Assembly (NCBI GenBank): GCA_052168235.1
Contig: JBQLZK010000113.1
Coordinates: forward strand, 1-13,075
DNA from: Thainema sp.
Lineage (GTDB): Bacteria > Cyanobacteriota > Cyanobacteriia > Phormidesmidales > Phormidesmidaceae
Direction: 5' to 3'
DNA: 13,075 nt
Part shown: positions 3,624 through 13,012 of the stretch, in pieces
How the letters are laid out: every line of letters starts with the position of its first letter
Position numbering within the stretch: position 1 is the stretch's first letter
The notes under the pieces: generated by a model
What the model saw: the letters and a program-made list of their open reading frames with translations, nothing else
The model's database searches: none
Told to the model about the DNA's origin: nothing
Translations under genes and position numbers: made by a program

Positions 3624-4730
3624 ATGCAACAACGACGCCTCAAGGCTTATCTTGAGCTTATTCAAGAGCTACTGAGCTGTCCCAGTGGGGAAGAGTGGAT
3701 TCGATTGCGGCAGCATGAAGATTTAGTTGACGCTGGTTTTGTGCAAACAATGGAGCAGGTAGCCACGTCCCTCGCCCAAGAAGGTGACATGCAGCGCGCC
3801 ACGTTTCTGCACAACTGGGCCGGACAGCTGCATCATATTCTGACTCAAACGACTGCTCCGCCACGGGAGGAAAAGTCAAAGGCTTATCTAGACTTTATTC
3901 AATTGCTCCTGGGCGCTTCGCCGAAAGAACAGCAGCAGTTGATTGCGGCCAATCAAGACCTGATTGGGCCAGGATTGTTCAACATGATGCGGCAGATTGG
4001 GGCCCAGCTAGCCGCGCAGGGCAATCGTGATGCAGGGATTTACCTGACTAATCTATCTGAAGAAATGCGCAAGCTGTGGCTGCAGCAGCACGGCTTTCAG
4101 TCACCGCCGCTCAGTGCCGAGGTGACCGAGCCACGCGCTAAAGGAGAACCGGCAAGCTACAAACAATCTAAGCCATCCTCTACCCGGCAACCCACCAGCA
4201 AAGCGCCAACCACCCCGCAGGACGCTCAGAAATCACCAACTGCGGCTCAATCAGCTCCACCGGTTGTTGATCCGACAATTCCTGATCCGTGGGCAGAATC
4301 AGACTCGTCTTCAGAAGGAACTCCAAGTGAGACCGCTGCCAGTGCGGCTGTTGCGGCCCCAGCGACGTTGGCAAACTCTACGGCTGTATCATCGACGCCA
4401 GAACTGGCTGAGCGAGTTCTACAAGAATTGAATCAGCATCTAGCTGCGATCGCAACTGCTCTGACGGAGCTGACTGAGCGATTGGCCACTCATCCACCGT
4501 CACCACCACCGCCACCACGACCACTCTGGCATTTAGAAGCATTAGAACAGGCCTGCCAAGCGGGCTGGGTGTTAACGACAGAGGAAGTCGAGCAGCTGAT
4601 TCAGGTAAAACCGAAGTGTTCGGCCAAGGAAGATCACTTCGACCGAGGGAACTGGCGGTTTATCAAGGTCGGTAAAATTGGCATTCAAGTGGCATGGCGG
4701 ATTGAGAAACTGGAGCTAGAGCAGACCTAA
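3624..4730 (+). CDS. Hypothetical protein: two N-terminal helical repeats, a Pro/Ser/Thr/Ala-rich linker and a small C-terminal domain
   Basis: 368-aa ORF. Repeats start [11 protein letters not shown] (3642) and [11 protein letters not shown] (3879). Low-complexity middle region. C-terminal domain [12 protein letters not shown]...[17 protein letters not shown]. Confidence 0.8.
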
Positions 4731-5996: not shown

Positions 5997-6513
5997 AGGA
6001 AGTGCTGCTCTCGTTAGGTATAACTTTTGTGTTGTTGTTTAAACTTTGCGCTCGAAACTAAAATTTACGCAGCTTTTTCTAGGGATTTACTGCTAAGAAA
6101 ATGACCAAAATTCGTGGCTAATCAAAACTTAGAATTGATTTAAGATTTCCCTTGGTGGTTTAAAAATCATCCACGCTATGCTGCAAGTGTGTGGCCTGTG
6201 GTGATAGCCCAAGTCGCTATTGGTATAAGTTTCTTTGGCATCAGTAGGCGAACGTAATTCAAAGCACAACAGTTCCCATGACAGAAGTTCACACGACAGA
6301 TCTAAGCTTGGTTGAATTAGTTGAATTAAAAGTAAGCAACCCAGCGTGAATATCTTAATGCTGGATTTGCGATCGCATCATCCATTCCCAAACATCCTCA
6401 AAAAAGCTGCCTACTGATCAAGTATTTCTACTCATCTGTCGGACTCACCAGCCTCATAAAAACCGAACACTAGAAGCAAACATTCACAATCTTAATGATT
6501 GGGAGATCTCCCT

Positions 6514-8835
6514 ATGACCGCAGTGAATTTAAATCAAGAAATTAGTCTTGCGGGACTTAACCTAACCAACCTAAAGCAGCCGGATATTAATACGTTGACT
6601 CAAGTGCAGCCTCACGGTGTGCTGTTGGTATTGCAGGAGTCAGATCTAACCGTGCTACAAGTGAGCCGAAATACCCGCACAGCACTGGGATTGCCGCCAG
6701 AAGAGGTACTCGGCAAAACTCTAGATGACTTACTCGATCCCTATCAGGTTGATCAATTCCGGACTGGACTGTATTACGAAAACTTGGACATTATTAACCC
6801 GACTAAAGTTTGGGTGAAGCGCCAGGGAGATGACTACGGCGTTTACGATGCCATTTTTCACCGCAGCGCAGATGGGTTCTTGATTGTGGAGTTGGAACCC
6901 GCTCTGACGCAGGAAACTATTCCCTTCCTGAGCTTTTATCACCTCGCTAGAGCTTCGATCAGCCAGCTTGAGGCAACGCCGAATCTAGTGGATTTCTGTC
7001 GCATCATTGTCCATGAGGTACGTCGCGTCACTGGTTTTGACCGGGTGATGCTCTACAAATTCGACGATGACGGTCATGGTGAGGTGCTAGCTGAAGAGTT
7101 AGTTGAGGGTATGGAATCCTATCTGGGTCTATATTTCCCAGAATCAGATGTACCACAGCCTGCCCGCAAGATGTTCCTCTCCAATTGGATTCGGGTGATC
7201 CCCGATGCCAAGGCGGAACCTGTCGATTTGTATCCGGCCAATAATCCCGTGACGGGCCAGCCAACGGATTTAATCATGTCCGTTCTGCGTCAGCCCTACC
7301 GCTGCCATATTGAATACCTCAGCCACATGCAGGTGGGATCGTCGCTGACCATTTCGCTGATGAAGGATCAGAAGCTCTGGGGTCTAATTGCCTGCCACCA
7401 CCGTACACCCAAGCAGGTGCCTTACGAACTGCGGAAAGCCTGTGAATTTCTGGGTCGGGTGATTTTCTCTGAAATCTCCACCCGCGAAGAGGAAGCCGAC
7501 CATAACTACCGGATGAAGCTGGCTCAGGTGCAGTCCCGGTTAGTTGACCGGATGGCGCAGGAAGACTACTTCGTGCATGGTCTGGTGCAGCAGGAGCCGA
7601 GTCTGCTGGACTTGGTTGACGCCAAAGGGGCCGCGATTTGCTTCAACGGTCACTGGACAACGATTGGCCGCACGCCGTCTGAGGAAGAGTTGAACTATCT
7701 GGTGCAGTGGCTGAATAAGACCGTCGATGGCGAGATTTTTGAAACTAGTGCGCTGCCATTGGTTTACTCCGATGCCCAGCGATTCAAAGACGTAGCCAGT
7801 GGTTTGCTCGCAATCCCGATCTCGAAGCGCAGCTACGTGCTGTGGTTCCGACCGGAAGTCATTCAAACCGTCAACTGGGGCGGCGATCCGAATAATGCTT
7901 ACACATTAGAAGGTGAAGCTGACAATCAGTGGCTCTGTCCCCGTAAGTCTTTCCATCTCTGGAAAGAAACAGTAAAGCTGCAGTCGCTGCCCTGGAAATC
8001 GGTGGAGATTCGGGCGGCACTAGAACTGCGTAAAGCAATCGTCAACATTGTTCTGCGACAGGCGGAAGAGTTGGCCTTACTGGCTCAGGATCTGGAGCGT
8101 TCGAATGCCGAGCTGAAGCGGTTTGCCTACGTTGCGTCCCATGATTTGCAGGAACCGCTAAATCAGGTGGCTAACTTTGTGCAGCTTCTGGAAATGCGCT
8201 ACGATGCCGAGCTGGGTCAAGACGGTAAAGAGTTTATTGGCTTTGCCGTTGAGGGCGTCAGCCTGATGCAGACCCTGATCGACGATGTATTGGCCTATTC
8301 CAAGGTTGATCTGAAGGGGATTGATCGGGAGCTGATCGACGTGCAGGATTCGCTGGATCAAGCGATGAATAATCTGCGCGGACGGATTGCGGACGCCAAC
8401 GCTGCGATTACCGTGGATTTATTGCCGACCATCGTGGCCGACGGCACGCAGCTCATGCAGCTCTTCCAGAACCTGATTGGCAACGCGATTAAGTTCCGCA
8501 AGCCGTCAGAGCTACCGCGCATCCACATTGGCGTGCAGCGTCAGGAAGATGCTTGGCTGTTCTCAGTCAAGGACAACGGCATTGGCCTTGACCCACAGTT
8601 TGCCGAGCGCATTTTCATCATCTTCCAGCGGCTTCATACTCGGGATGAGTATCCCGGTTCCGGTATGGGACTGGCGATCTGTAAGAAGATTGTCGAATGT
8701 CATCGGGGCCGCATTTGGGTTGAATCCCAAGTGGGAGAAGGCGCAACGTTTTATTTCACCATTCCGGTTGAAGGACGCGATCGCAATCATGGTAATGGAC
8801 GAAAAGCCCAAACGTATCTTTTTGATCGAGGATAA
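6514..8835 (+). CDS. cph1: Cyanobacterial phytochrome (Cph1/CphA type): PAS-GAF-PHY-HisKA-HATPase
   Basis: QPHG PAS start, GFDRVMLY, PESDVP, bilin-binding Cys in the GAF domain (YRCHIEY, codon 7303-7305), LWGLIACHH, WGG and PRKSF tongue, H-box ASHDLQEPL, N/G1/F/G2 boxes. ATG 6514 follows GGAG at 6502-6505. Confidence 0.95.
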   Translation: MTAVNLNQEISLAGLNLTNLKQPDINTLTQVQPHGVLLVLQESDLTVLQVSRNTRTALGLPPEEVLGKTLDDLLDPYQVDQFRTGLYYENLDIINPTKVWVKRQGDDYGVYDAIFHRSADGFLIVELEPALTQETIPFLSFYHLARASISQLEATPNLVDFCRIIVHEVRRVTGFDRVMLYKFDDDGHGEVLAEELVEGMESYLGLYFPESDVPQPARKMFLSNWIRVIPDAKAEPVDLYPANNPVTGQPTDLIMSVLRQPYRCHIEYLSHMQVGSSLTISLMKDQKLWGLIACHHRTPKQVPYELRKACEFLGRVIFSEISTREEEADHNYRMKLAQVQSRLVDRMAQEDYFVHGLVQQEPSLLDLVDAKGAAICFNGHWTTIGRTPSEEELNYLVQWLNKTVDGEIFETSALPLVYSDAQRFKDVASGLLAIPISKRSYVLWFRPEVIQTVNWGGDPNNAYTLEGEADNQWLCPRKSFHLWKETVKLQSLPWKSVEIRAALELRKAIVNIVLRQAEELALLAQDLERSNAELKRFAYVASHDLQEPLNQVANFVQLLEMRYDAELGQDGKEFIGFAVEGVSLMQTLIDDVLAYSKVDLKGIDRELIDVQDSLDQAMNNLRGRIADANAAITVDLLPTIVADGTQLMQLFQNLIGNAIKFRKPSELPRIHIGVQRQEDAWLFSVKDNGIGLDPQFAERIFIIFQRLHTRDEYPGSGMGLAICKKIVECHRGRIWVESQVGEGATFYFTIPVEGRDRNHGNGRKAQTYLFDRG

Positions 8836-9235
8836 TCGGGGCGATATTCGACTGATTCAAGAAGCCCTCAAGAGCAGTAATGTACCTTGCGAGGTCGAGA
8901 TTGCTCGCGATGGCATGGAGGCAATGGCCTACCTGCAGCAGGATGGGGAAGATGCGATCGCACATCGTCCCGACCTCATCCTGCTGGACTTGAACCTGCC
9001 GAAGAAAGATGGTCGGGAGGTGCTAGCTGAAATCAAGGCTGACGAAGCGCTCAAGCACATCCCGATTATCGTGCTGACGACATCCCGCAATGAGGAGGAC
9101 ATTAGCAAGAGCTATGATCTATACGTGAACTGCTATATCTCCAAATCGCGGAATCTAGCGCAACTGTTCAAAATCGTTCGAGGGATTGAGGCATTTTGGT
9201 TAGAGACAGCCAAACTACCGTCCAACGGCCCTTAG
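8789..9235 (+). CDS. rcp1: Phytochrome cognate response regulator Rcp1/RcpA
   Basis: IFLIEDNRGD, PDLILLDLNLPKKDGREVL, VLTTS, NCYISK and FWLE motifs; directly follows cph1. Start is ATG 8789 or 8795, overlapping the cph1 3' end. Confidence 0.93.
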   Translation: MVMDEKPKRIFLIEDNRGDIRLIQEALKSSNVPCEVEIARDGMEAMAYLQQDGEDAIAHRPDLILLDLNLPKKDGREVLAEIKADEALKHIPIIVLTTSRNEEDISKSYDLYVNCYISKSRNLAQLFKIVRGIEAFWLETAKLPSNGP

Positions 9236-11289: not shown

Positions 11290-11649
11290 CTACGCAGGTC
11301 TTCTTTGAATCTGTTGGGTAGTGTCATCAAAACTGCGATCGCATCTTCGGTTTGCACGGTCTGATTGGCCTAAGCCGTAATTTCGGTAACAGTGCCAGAT
11401 GTGGGAGCCTGAATCATACGCAGGTCGCCAACTGGCCGAATGATGGCCGGAGCCTTGGCCGTGACGCTGTATTTGAATAAGCTCGCAAACGTCAACTCCC
11501 CCCCAAAGAGGCCGAGCAAGGCGATGCCGCCCAGTTTCGACCAGCGAGAAATGGGCGGCAAAAACGCGTCGGGGGTGACGGCTCGGAGTAGTATGGGCGG
11601 CTTAACGGTCACATCTGGAGAATCAAAAATTGATGAATGATCAGAACAT
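11290..11649 (-). pseudogene. Truncated HlyD-family membrane fusion protein of the cyanobacterial peptide-export (type I secretion) type
   Basis: FLPPISRW, a transmembrane segment, KYSVTAKAPAIIRPVGDLRMIQAPTSGTV. In-frame TAG at 11370-11372, after which similarity continues (ANQTVQTEDAIAV). A 1-nt frameshift at about 11329-11332 then gives DDTTQQIQ. The rest of the gene is missing. The start region is probably also frameshifted (ATG 11649 is out of frame with GTG 11612). Confidence 0.85.
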
Positions 11650-11838
11650 GAGGCTCATCGCCCAGGTTAAATGATCATAGGATTTCAGCTTAACTCGAAT
11701 ACGCTCATTGTTACCTCCCTGAAGATCGGCCTGAGTCTCTTCAGGAATTTCACACCATAAATTATTACTGGTGAGGCTGTTGCTGGCGCAGGATATTTGA
11801 TGATCTTTTATCTAACTATGTTGTGAATCTAATGTCAT
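11641..11838 (-). pseudogene. Double-glycine leader peptide gene 5 (core resembles ribosomal protein uS10 N-terminus), interrupted by an in-frame TAG
   Basis: Manual translation: MTLDSQHS*IKDHQISCASNSLTSNNLWCEIPEETQADLQGG|NNERIRVKLKSYDHLTWAMSLMF*. GGAG lies 8 nt before ATG 11838. TAG at 11812-11814. Confidence 0.75.
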
Positions 11839-11862
11839 TGATTTCACTCCCAAATATCGCGA

Positions 11863-12027
11863 TTAGATACCACTTTGTTGAGCAACGTGAGTTAGTTCAT
11901 GGGCTAGAAGACTGGATCCTCCAGAGAAAACTTGTGTCTCACAATCAGACAATTCAGTAAAATGCTTAGTCAGGTTTTCAAGATTAGAGCATTTATTTTG
12001 CTTATTTTGCTTATTTTGCTTATTCAT
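11863..12027 (-). CDS. Double-glycine leader peptide gene 4, 54 aa (core resembles the DUF4157 HExxH motif)
   Basis: Manual translation: MNKQNKQNKQNKCSNLENLTKHFTELSDCETQVFSGG|SSLLAHELTHVAQQSGI*. Intact ORF below the ORF-track size cutoff. Confidence 0.85.
   Translation of the reverse strand: MNKQNKQNKQNKCSNLENLTKHFTELSDCETQVFSGGSSLLAHELTHVAQQSGI
11993..12024. repeat. 9-bp tandem repeat (TTATTTTGC) x3.5 encoding NKQ repeats in the leader of peptide 4
   Basis: Copies at 11993, 12002 and 12011, plus a partial copy at 12020. Confidence 0.9.
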
Positions 12028-12163
12028 TGTTCTCAATTTAATTCGAGATCACCCAATCTGCGATCGCAGCCCCATCTCTAAACGATTCTGGAAGTGCGAT
12101 CGCAAACTCTAATTCAGGTTAAGACAGCCAGATCAAAAAACTGAATTTCAAACCTGGAGCTTA

Positions 12164-12318
12164 TCAAGTACCACCTTGTCCTGAACCATCACAAGGAAAC
12201 GAGTAGCCGAAATCTTTGCCTCCGCTAAGAGTTGATTGCGTATCGTTCGACAGCTCTTGCCAAAGTGATGGTTTAGTTAACAAGTGTTGGGGGAAGGCTT
12301 TGCAATATTACGTTTCAT
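12164..12318 (-). pseudogene. Double-glycine leader peptide gene 3 (core resembles the PsaB FX-binding loop), 1-nt frameshift in the leader
   Basis: Adding one base to the G5 run at 12289-12293 gives MKRNIAKPSPQHLLTKPSLWQELSNDTQSTLSGG|KDFGYSFPCDGSGQGGT*. As written, the ATG 12318 frame stops after 13 codons. An in-frame TTG could give a shorter leader. Confidence 0.8.
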
Positions 12319-12378
12319 AGGATTTTCCAGTTACAGCAAAGTGTCTGACGATAAAGGATACAGCTAGAGCTGCTAGTC

Positions 12379-12600
12379 TTACGCATCCACACGTCCGCGC
12401 AAAGTTGCAAGTTCCGCTGAAAACTCTTCTTGGAGCCGTTGGGTGTTACTGGTTGCTGCCGCAAAGAGGAAAATTACGCTGCCGCCTGAGATTGCTTCCG
12501 TTTCGTTTTCTGAAAGCTCTATTGCATCAAGGACAGGCAAAAGCTCGAGTTGATTTTGGTGTTTACCAGGTAAACCGTTTCTAAATTTTTTATTCTTCAT
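12379..12600 (-). CDS. Double-glycine leader peptide gene 2, 73 aa (core ends in an SLH-porin coiled-coil motif)
   Basis: MKNKKFRNGLPGKHQNQLELLPVLDAIELSENETEAISGG|SVIFLFAAATSNTQRLQEEFSAELATLRGRVDA*. AAGGAG (12607-12612) lies 6 nt before ATG 12600. Confidence 0.85.
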   Translation of the reverse strand: MKNKKFRNGLPGKHQNQLELLPVLDAIELSENETEAISGGSVIFLFAAATSNTQRLQEEFSAELATLRGRVDA

Positions 12601-12686
12601 GAGCATCTCCTTTCCCTCAAAAGGGAAACAGGCTGGAATAGAATTTATTCGACTAAATTGCAATTTTATGATCGCAAATTTATATA

Positions 12687-12863
12687 CTAAAACTCTCCTC
12701 TCGCATCTGCTTGGACAACAACCTTCGTGAAGGCATCAAACATTCCGCCTTGAATTCTGCTCTGAGTCGTTTCAGGAATATCTTGAAGGAATAATATTTT
12801 CTGAATTTGTAGATATTTAGAAGAAAGCTGTCTCATGTTTGGTTTGGTTTGAGTACAGGCCAT
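12687..12863 (-). CDS. Double-glycine leader peptide gene 1, 58 aa (core resembles the phycocyanin beta N-terminus)
   Basis: Manual translation: MACTQTKPNMRQLSSKYLQIQKILFLQDIPETTQSRIQGG|MFDAFTKVVVQADARGEF*. AAGAGG lies 7 nt before ATG 12863. Confidence 0.85.
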   Translation of the reverse strand: MACTQTKPNMRQLSSKYLQIQKILFLQDIPETTQSRIQGGMFDAFTKVVVQADARGEF

Positions 12864-12965: not shown

Positions 12966-13012
12966 GGAAATTGTTTTGTAGCGCGGCGGAGCCGCGCTAC
13001 AAAACAATTTCC
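12966..13012. repeat. Perfect 22-bp inverted repeat with a 3-nt loop (REP-like / small dispersed repeat, or terminator-like hairpin)
   Basis: GGAAATTGTTTTGTAGCGCGGC-GGA-GCCGCGCTACAAAACAATTTCC. Confidence 0.85.

Follow-up and report, generated by a model that had tools for sequence, protein, structure and literature searches.

An 18-residue copy of the N terminus of the phycocyanin beta subunit, CpcB, lies directly behind a double-glycine (GG) leader in a small gene of Thainema sp. The gene lies near one end of the window, by which we mean the whole 13,075-nucleotide stretch of contig JBQLZK010000113.1 (assembly GCA_052168235.1) that was analyzed and that appears to be the contig in full. Its product, P0001 or peptide 1, is very probably a GG precursor whose core is CpcB(1-18), rather than a remnant of cpcB. 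Peptide 1 heads a tandem row of five GG-leader units (11641-12863, minus strand; Table 1), and four of the five cores match a conserved family at E≤0.0013 in Pfam, PDB or NCBIfam searches, with the fifth pointing weakly to uS10. Such a row of genes with copied cores is unusual. What looked like a lone coincidence thereby becomes a systematic pattern, more striking than the single finding from which the analysis started.

Table 1. The GG-leader array and the adjoining HlyD-type remnant in window coordinates, with the basis of each assignment
Feature	Coordinates	Strand	Basis
HlyD-type membrane-fusion-protein remnant	11290..11612 (left limit approximate)	-	Pfam read-through
Peptide 5 unit	11641..11811	-	frames, PDB
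Peptide 4 precursor, 54 aa from ATG	11863..12027	-	Pfam PF13699
Peptide 3 unit, TTG start	12164..12283	-	PDB, NCBIfam, Pfam PsaA_PsaB
Peptide 2 precursor P0003, 73 aa	12379..12600	-	NCBIfam, porin identity
Peptide 1 precursor gene P0001, 58 aa	12863..12687	-	ORF translation
Peptide 1 leader, 40 residues, ends in GG	12863..12744	-	ORF translation
Peptide 1 core, copy of CpcB residues 1-18	12743..12690	-	phmmer, NCBIfam, cpcB comparison

Peptide 1 and the limits of its likeness to CpcB

The peptide 1 precursor reads MACTQTKPNMRQLSSKYLQIQKILFLQDIPETTQSRIQGG followed by MFDAFTKVVVQADARGEF and a TAG stop codon (12689..12687, minus strand), and AGAGG stands 7-8 nt 5' of its ATG. Its 40-residue leader terminates in DIPETTQSRIQGG (...SRIQGG, with the glycine codons at 12749..12744, minus strand), and thus has the features that define a GG leader, namely a length of about 15-40 residues and a Gly-Gly end preceded by the usual pattern of acidic and hydrophobic residues. 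On re-translation, the 54 nt of the core encode exactly MFDAFTKVVVQADARGEF, so the location first given for it, 12690..12743, is exact and lies on the minus strand. The ORF translation and a phmmer search against the PDB agree with the original prediction in placing the residue that corresponds to CpcB Met1 immediately after the GG, and the end of the core at TAG. All 34 distinct PDB sequences matched at E≤10 are phycocyanin chains, and all 34 align from their own residue 1-3 to residue 17-19. The best of them, 4h0m_B, reads FDAFTKVVAQADARGEF and agrees at 16 of 17 aligned residues (E 0.0046), which bears out the near-exact likeness to CpcB that had been claimed; the second best also reads FDAFTKVVAQADARGEF (E 0.0055). 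The core further matches positions 1-17 of the C-phycocyanin beta model TIGR01339 in NCBIfam (E 0.0013). With 17 of 171 model positions covered, and 18.7 bits against a cut-off of 279.3, peptide 1 does not qualify as a full-length CpcB, and it has no Pfam match. The window has 58 further ORFs of 40-110 aa, none of which matches any NCBIfam model at E≤0.01, and the CpcB likeness is therefore more than chance.

A single residue of the core deviates from the best PDB sequences of CpcB. This is Val10, which is Ala in those sequences; its codon, GTC, is one T/C transition from GCC, as had been noted from the DNA. Asp13 is kept, and the core has no Cys and one Thr.

One alternative is that peptide 1 is a plain cpcB pseudogene or remnant, or a chimera of the assembly. 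It was weighed by comparison with three plasmid-borne copies of cpcB, from Acaryochloris, Kovacikia and Pseudanabaena, to which the core DNA is identical at 40, 39 and 37 of 54 nt, respectively. The three genes are identical to one another at 36-37 of 54 nt over the same region, so the core is about as close to them as they are to each other. Outside the core this likeness ends: the 60 nt upstream are identical to the three genes at 14-19 positions and the 60 nt downstream at 10-13, both at chance level, whereas true cpcB genes keep 36-39 of 60 nt among themselves downstream of the first 18 codons. Gapped local alignments of the flanks gave unremarkable scores in five of six tests (500 shuffles each). 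The sixth returned a 22-nt match between the DNA downstream of the peptide 1 stop and Kovacikia cpcB, a score that none of the 500 shuffles reached and that is the one local sign of a remnant. We rejected it as homology, since it is built on the over-represented HIP1-like TTGCGATC, has no counterpart in the cpcB of Acaryochloris or Pseudanabaena and shows an offset of 19 nt. Flanks at chance level indicate that the homology is bounded by the GG and the stop, which is not what a cpcB remnant would look like. A remnant or chimera is further opposed by the canonical GG leader that precedes the core, by the four neighboring units of the same architecture, and by a nearly identical 58-aa protein, P0002, on an independent 551-base contig. 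This alternative is largely refuted, and we leave it scarcely any probability. Alignment with cpcB from other taxa, at protein and nucleotide level, confines the similarity to the 54-nt core, and the original prediction's interpretation is supported: cpcB homology was found neither past the stop nor upstream of the GG.

Peptide 1 is very rare. Among 5.8 billion clusters its one relative is P0002, which is 98% identical and differs by one change, in the leader, leaving the core the same. The pattern G-[GA]-M[LF]DAF.[KR]VV.QAD occurs in none of 185,579 species-representative genomes, a collection from which the window's own sequence is absent. With codon 10 left free and a Leu- or Phe-type codon added, the exact core DNA likewise has no counterpart as the start of a cpcB in the species-representative genomes, a collection outside which the cpcB of the host falls. 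There is no near match of the window among plasmids. A search with P0001 for longer proteins yielded none from seven candidates, a weak result as true CpcB proteins were also not returned, and an ESM Atlas search gave no usable lead (best score 0.85, to Mito_carr clusters). A predicted complex of PHCA_SYNY3 with residues 29-58 of P0001 scored 0.01 in a run made without controls, and is counted neither way.

Five leaders and five copied segments

The five leaders align on the motif ...ELSExTQxxxSGG, in which the GG is invariant. When the window is translated in six frames, a strict form of ELSExTQxxxSGG is seen at five places, each within the array and on one strand. Peptide 1 matches neither TIGR01847 (bacteriocin signal) nor NF038167 (CTB family bacteriocin) at E≤1, and peptide 2 reaches 13.5 bits against TIGR01847 and 20.1 bits against NF038167, below the respective cut-offs of 15.7 and 32. 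The contig ORFs contain no modification enzyme domain, so peptide 1 does not qualify as a modified RiPP precursor of the lanthipeptide, cyanobactin or NHLP/Nif11 proteusin type, and NHLP or Nif11 models gave no match in Pfam or NCBIfam. A match of the peptide 1 leader to a TQQ RiPP model (E 0.033) was treated as chance. All five copied segments are in sense orientation and in frame, start 0-5 residues after the GG, and end at or near the stop.

The ATG of peptide 2 is preceded by AAGGAG, and its leader terminates in ELSENETEAISGG. The core (12480..12382, minus strand) copies the stalk of SLH/OprB 'iron uptake' porins, the segment that separates their SLH domain from the barrel (NCBIfam NF033921, E 6e-5), and the peptide has a hydrophobic head, SVIFLFAAA. 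Its last 20 residues are 100% identical to the porin fragments P0010-P0012 and, equally, to annotated iron-uptake porins in eight plasmid records from diverse cyanobacteria. Over its full length the core can be aligned to the porin, as protein and as DNA, with a single clean in-frame gap of 9 codons (27 nt). A GG peptide of different origin, P0006, whose leader aligns on the motif given above, is 54% identical to P0003 overall and has the tail AELATLRGRVD unchanged; no other part of the pair is conserved as well as this porin-like tail. A weak match of peptide 2 to TLR9 was treated as chance. As a side observation, an SLH/OprB porin gene across the record start of the Calothrix sp. PCC 7716 plasmid AP025019.1 (1108-2142) is unannotated in the PLSDB table.

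Peptide 3 has a 22-residue leader that terminates in ELSNDTQSTLSGG, and its core (12217..12167, minus strand) reads KDFGYSFPCDGSGQGGT, a copy of the Fx-loop segment of PsaB. The core agrees with PsaB KDFGYSFPCDGPGRGGT at 15 of 17 residues (E 9e-5, with 171 PDB sequences at E≤10), peptide 3 matches positions 547-567 of the psaB model TIGR01336 (E 4e-5), and its DNA is 79% identical to Fischerella psaB_2. An ATG-started frame just upstream, MKRNIAKPSPNTC followed by a stop, suggests a longer leader that has been frameshifted, so the leader of peptide 3 may be frameshifted. The TGA stop (12164-12166) falls at a psaB Cys codon, TGT, from which it is one base change away; no parental codon could be traced among the sequences compared for the stops of the other units (for example peptide 2, 12379-12381). 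In a MAFFT alignment, psaB homology seemed to run on past the stop of peptide 3; this was rejected as not significant, since 70 of 500 shuffles reached the score.

The leader of peptide 4 contains an NKQ repeat and terminates in ELSDCETQVFSGG. The core (11916..11866, minus strand) reads SSLLAHELTHVAQQSGI and copies the HExxH helix of the eCIS core/DUF4157 domain: it matches profile positions 60-77 of 79 in Pfam PF13699 (E 1.4e-5; 25.6 bits, above the 22-bit cut-off) and is 71-79% identical to annotated DUF4157 proteins. Weak matches to PRDM9 zinc fingers were treated as chance. At least three copies of the 9-nt unit AAGCAAAAT (coding strand) lie in the leader at 11993-12024 (minus strand), giving NKQNKQNKQNK, and this slippage-prone tract could make the leader variable in length.

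Peptide 5 is probably a dead copy. Its leader remnant, ...EIPEETQADLQGG, has no ATG, GTG or TTG in frame upstream, and the 3' end of this leader is 71% identical to that of peptide 1 over 38 nt. The core (11712..11644, minus strand) reads NNERIRVKLKSYDHLTWAMSLMF, with its first 14 residues resembling the N terminus of uS10. The stretch NNERIRVKLKSYDH resembles uS10 residues 2-19, and three of the four PDB matches of peptide 5 are to S10, at E values (1.1-2) that are not significant alone; a Pfam search gave no match. The likeness of this core to uS10 is suggestive only.

Origin, decay and possible action of the array

Next to the array lies what is left of an HlyD-type gene, comprising a TM-like segment at the N terminus and the first part of a lipoyl-like domain, with an in-frame TAG at 11372..11370 (minus strand). 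When it is read through the stop (as X), matches to Biotin_lipoyl_2 (E 0.0048) and HlyD_D23 (E 0.13) span the stop, both below their cut-offs. The remnant is cut off where a convergent hybrid kinase gene ends (11271), which suggests that a deletion or rearrangement took the rest of an export operon. No ABC or C39 exporter domain was found in any large ORF of the 13-kb contig, and a C39 exporter may be encoded elsewhere in the genome. The array has a GC content of 40.7%, against 50% for the rest of the contig, as would be seen in decaying or foreign DNA. No convincing promoter or terminator was found at the array, and the window contains no Rfam family and no tRNA. Overall, the locus looks partly decayed, with one or two units degraded.

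Upstream genes on the other strand encode a methyltransferase, an aldehyde dehydrogenase, a glyoxalase, AzlC, a phytochrome kinase, response regulators and the hybrid kinase. The phytochrome histidine kinase is of Cph1 type (PAS_2-GAF-PHY-HisKA-HATPase) and is followed by a response regulator (6499-9235, plus strand), whose ORF overlaps the 3' end of the kinase and probably has a later true start. A 368-aa ORF at 3624-4730 (plus strand) has no Pfam family, and its NCBIfam matches are at chance level. About 100 nt upstream of peptide 1 there is a perfect 22-bp inverted repeat with a 3-nt loop (12966-13012); as no T-run follows it 3' on either strand, it is not a classical terminator, and it may be a small repeat element. 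The HIP1 palindrome GCGATCGC has 16 sites in the window (for example at 112, 1037, 12060 and 12096), where 0.18 would be expected from base composition, a density that we take to mark the contig as cyanobacterial.

The cores would descend from short fragments of conserved genes that became joined in frame to a leader and then acquired a stop, and we consider it likely that they do derive from gene fragments. The in-frame deletion in peptide 2, with matches on both of its sides, and the deviant residues that single transitions explain point to such descent and not to convergence; peptides 1 and 3 have three deviant residues, each one transition from a codon of the parental residue. That five of five fragments are in sense, in frame and between GG and stop argues that translated copies were selected, and the decay of neighboring genes indicates that this selection may have lapsed.

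For peptide 1, an ABC exporter whose gene lies elsewhere in the genome would cut off the leader after Gly40 with its C39 peptidase domain and release an unmodified 18-mer, a free copy of phycocyanin beta helix X. The free helix could compete with the native N terminus of CpcB for CpcA during monomer assembly, or for the proteolysis adaptor NblA, either in cells that take up the peptide or, ahead of export, in the producer itself. What the sequence shows is the identity to CpcB, the sharp limits of that identity, the leader motif and the recurrence of the pattern in five units; that the peptide is expressed, cleaved, exported and taken up, and what it would bind, we infer. The chances that peptide 1 is still expressed and exported appear evenly balanced. 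The broken HlyD remnant is the only export-related gene on the contig and peptide 5 lacks a start, both of which count against a working peptide 1. Action by competitive mimicry, though the mode that we rank first, is itself doubtful. We know of no uptake route by which an 18-mer would reach CpcA or NblA in a target cell, which counts against it, as does the fact that the parental segments are not all interfaces (they include an HExxH active-site helix and an Fe-S loop). On the other side, the N-terminal helices X and Y of phycocyanin form the association domain of the alpha/beta monomer, as the original prediction had stated for the N-terminal helix, with Asp13 a key residue (PMC11610994). 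The CpcB N terminus has been reported as an NblA binding site (Nguyen et al. 2017, PMC5576716, cited in PMC11477984), and fragments of a protein can inhibit their parent in vivo (PMC9245647). Together, these three points favor competitive mimicry with modest confidence. As a whole, the best explanation is that peptide 1 is a genuine GG precursor whose CpcB-fragment core serves mimicry, a reading that we hold tentatively and would stop short of calling probable.

Much of the same evidence can be read as a neutral mosaic within a dying bacteriocin locus, where illegitimate recombination or gene conversion patched pieces of genes behind leaders and the products have no present function. The truncated HlyD-like gene with its in-frame stop, the missing start codon of peptide 5 and the perhaps frameshifted leader of peptide 3, the low GC of the array and the lack of an exporter on the contig all fit this account, as do the rarity of peptide 1, with one relative and no occurrence in 185,579 genomes, and deviant residues that look like simple transitions. 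It is less easily squared with five fragments that are all in sense and in frame with their leaders, for each of which we estimate the chance at about 1 in 6, or with similarities that begin at the GG and stop at the stop codon. The ORFs of peptides 1 and 2 are moreover unbroken and have Shine-Dalgarno-like sequences, peptide 2 has kept its frame across the deletion, and the porin-like tail is what P0003 and P0006 conserve best. We regard a purely neutral origin as credible but unlikely.

Two further accounts keep a function for the peptides and replace competition by another mode of action. In one, the exported peptides would imitate lysis products of cyanobacteria, as a danger or kin cue or as a false alarm for neighbors. 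A cyanobacterium that lyses would set free pieces of phycocyanin, PSI, porin and ribosomal protein, and four of the parental proteins are among the most abundant or conserved in the cyanobacterial cell. GG-leader peptides act as pheromones in other bacteria, and signaling genes also adjoin the array. Those neighbors, however, are phytochrome and PAS hybrid kinases that have no evident peptide-sensing domains and whose genes converge on the array; abundance is not a known trait of DUF4157 proteins, and there is no known receptor. We consider imitation of lysis products improbable. In the other account, which strikes us as similarly improbable, each core would seed aggregates of the matching native segment, as a natural counterpart of designed aggregating peptides. 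Against this, the CpcB and porin segments are helical in the native proteins. The deviant residues would favor it, in that they tend to be beta-prone or uncharged (in peptide 1, Val for Ala/Ser; in peptide 3, Ser for Pro and Gln for Arg), but this trend is judged from three substitutions only. The hydrophobic head of peptide 2 would fit, and the concept has been shown with designed peptides (PMC5830399).

Returning to mimicry as the preferred reading, its widest form would be that cyanobacteria encode an unrecognized class of exported 'protein-segment mimics'. These would be GG peptides with cores that copy, in frame, the best-conserved segments of essential or abundant proteins, in this locus phycocyanin helix X, the porin stalk, the PSI Fx loop, uS10 and an eCIS cargo domain. 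They would arise when a gene fragment is captured behind a leader. Aimed at other cyanobacteria, or at the phages or predators of cyanobacteria, they would serve as decoys, as dominant-negative peptides or as false signals of lysis. We put this forward as a speculation that is decidedly unlikely to hold in full.

Relation to known peptide systems

To our knowledge, double-glycine peptides are abundant in cyanobacterial genomes and a function is known for almost none. Here each core is a recognizable copy of a segment of a major protein, which gives it an obvious candidate target and makes its function testable with synthetic peptides. Recruitment of existing protein sequence into a GG precursor is said to have been described in 2010, by Haft et al., for NHLP and Nif11-type precursors. 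In those precursors the likeness to a whole protein lies in the leader, behind which stands a novel core that is modified; in the array, an ordinary GG leader precedes a core that is itself the copy. Bioactive peptides that are pieces of ordinary cellular proteins include the enterococcal pheromones and EDF from Zwf, and in Enterococcus separate small plasmid-encoded genes specify inhibitor peptides, look-alikes that compete with the pheromones. These systems belong to other organisms, use other export and processing, and include no GG-leader array with copies of several proteins.

The closest frame is that of the cyanobacterial GG precursor arrays (Wang, Fewer and Sivonen 2011, PMC3140520), which the row resembles in its short GG-leader precursors and their dense arrangement. 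Those arrays hold 1-16 copies, occur with C39 ABC exporters and HlyD proteins, and have highly diverse core sequences; NHLP and Nif11-type precursors are counted as families in the same paper. Their cores are described as rich in Gly, Cys, Ser and Thr and little conserved, and copies of housekeeping segments are not mentioned in the available part of that text, whereas the cores here are copies, and neither an exporter nor a modifying enzyme is found on the contig. The EbfG1-4/PteB system of Synechococcus elongatus (PMC4997328) is comparable in that it involves small unmodified cyanobacterial GG-motif proteins, which are secreted through a C39 exporter and have a non-antibiotic role, in biofilms. 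We found no sequence relation between the EbfG proteins and the array, and the accessible portion of that source does not describe them as copies of other proteins.

In their possible action, the peptides are like engineered dominant-negative fragments (PMC9245647) and aggregation-seeding peptides (PMC5830399), in which a peptide identical to a segment of its target interferes specifically with it. Those peptides, as far as the available texts go, are laboratory constructs that were artificially expressed or added, whereas the array encodes natural peptides behind GG leaders. The searchable literature describes no natural, gene-encoded and leader-exported dominant-negative or seeding peptide, and our search returned no published precedent for GG-leader cores that copy other proteins; the supplementary precursor tables of PMC3140520 might contain similar cases.

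The locus points to a concrete route to new peptide cores, in which pieces of genes are captured in frame. Should the copies act on the proteins from which they come, or on the partners of these, they would be a natural counterpart of engineered dominant-negative fragments and would represent a new logic for allelopathy or signaling among phototrophs. Should they not, the locus still illustrates clearly how small mosaic ORFs arise and break down. The frame, then, is a known one, the cyanobacterial GG precursor array, and what is new is that its cores copy conserved segments of other proteins.
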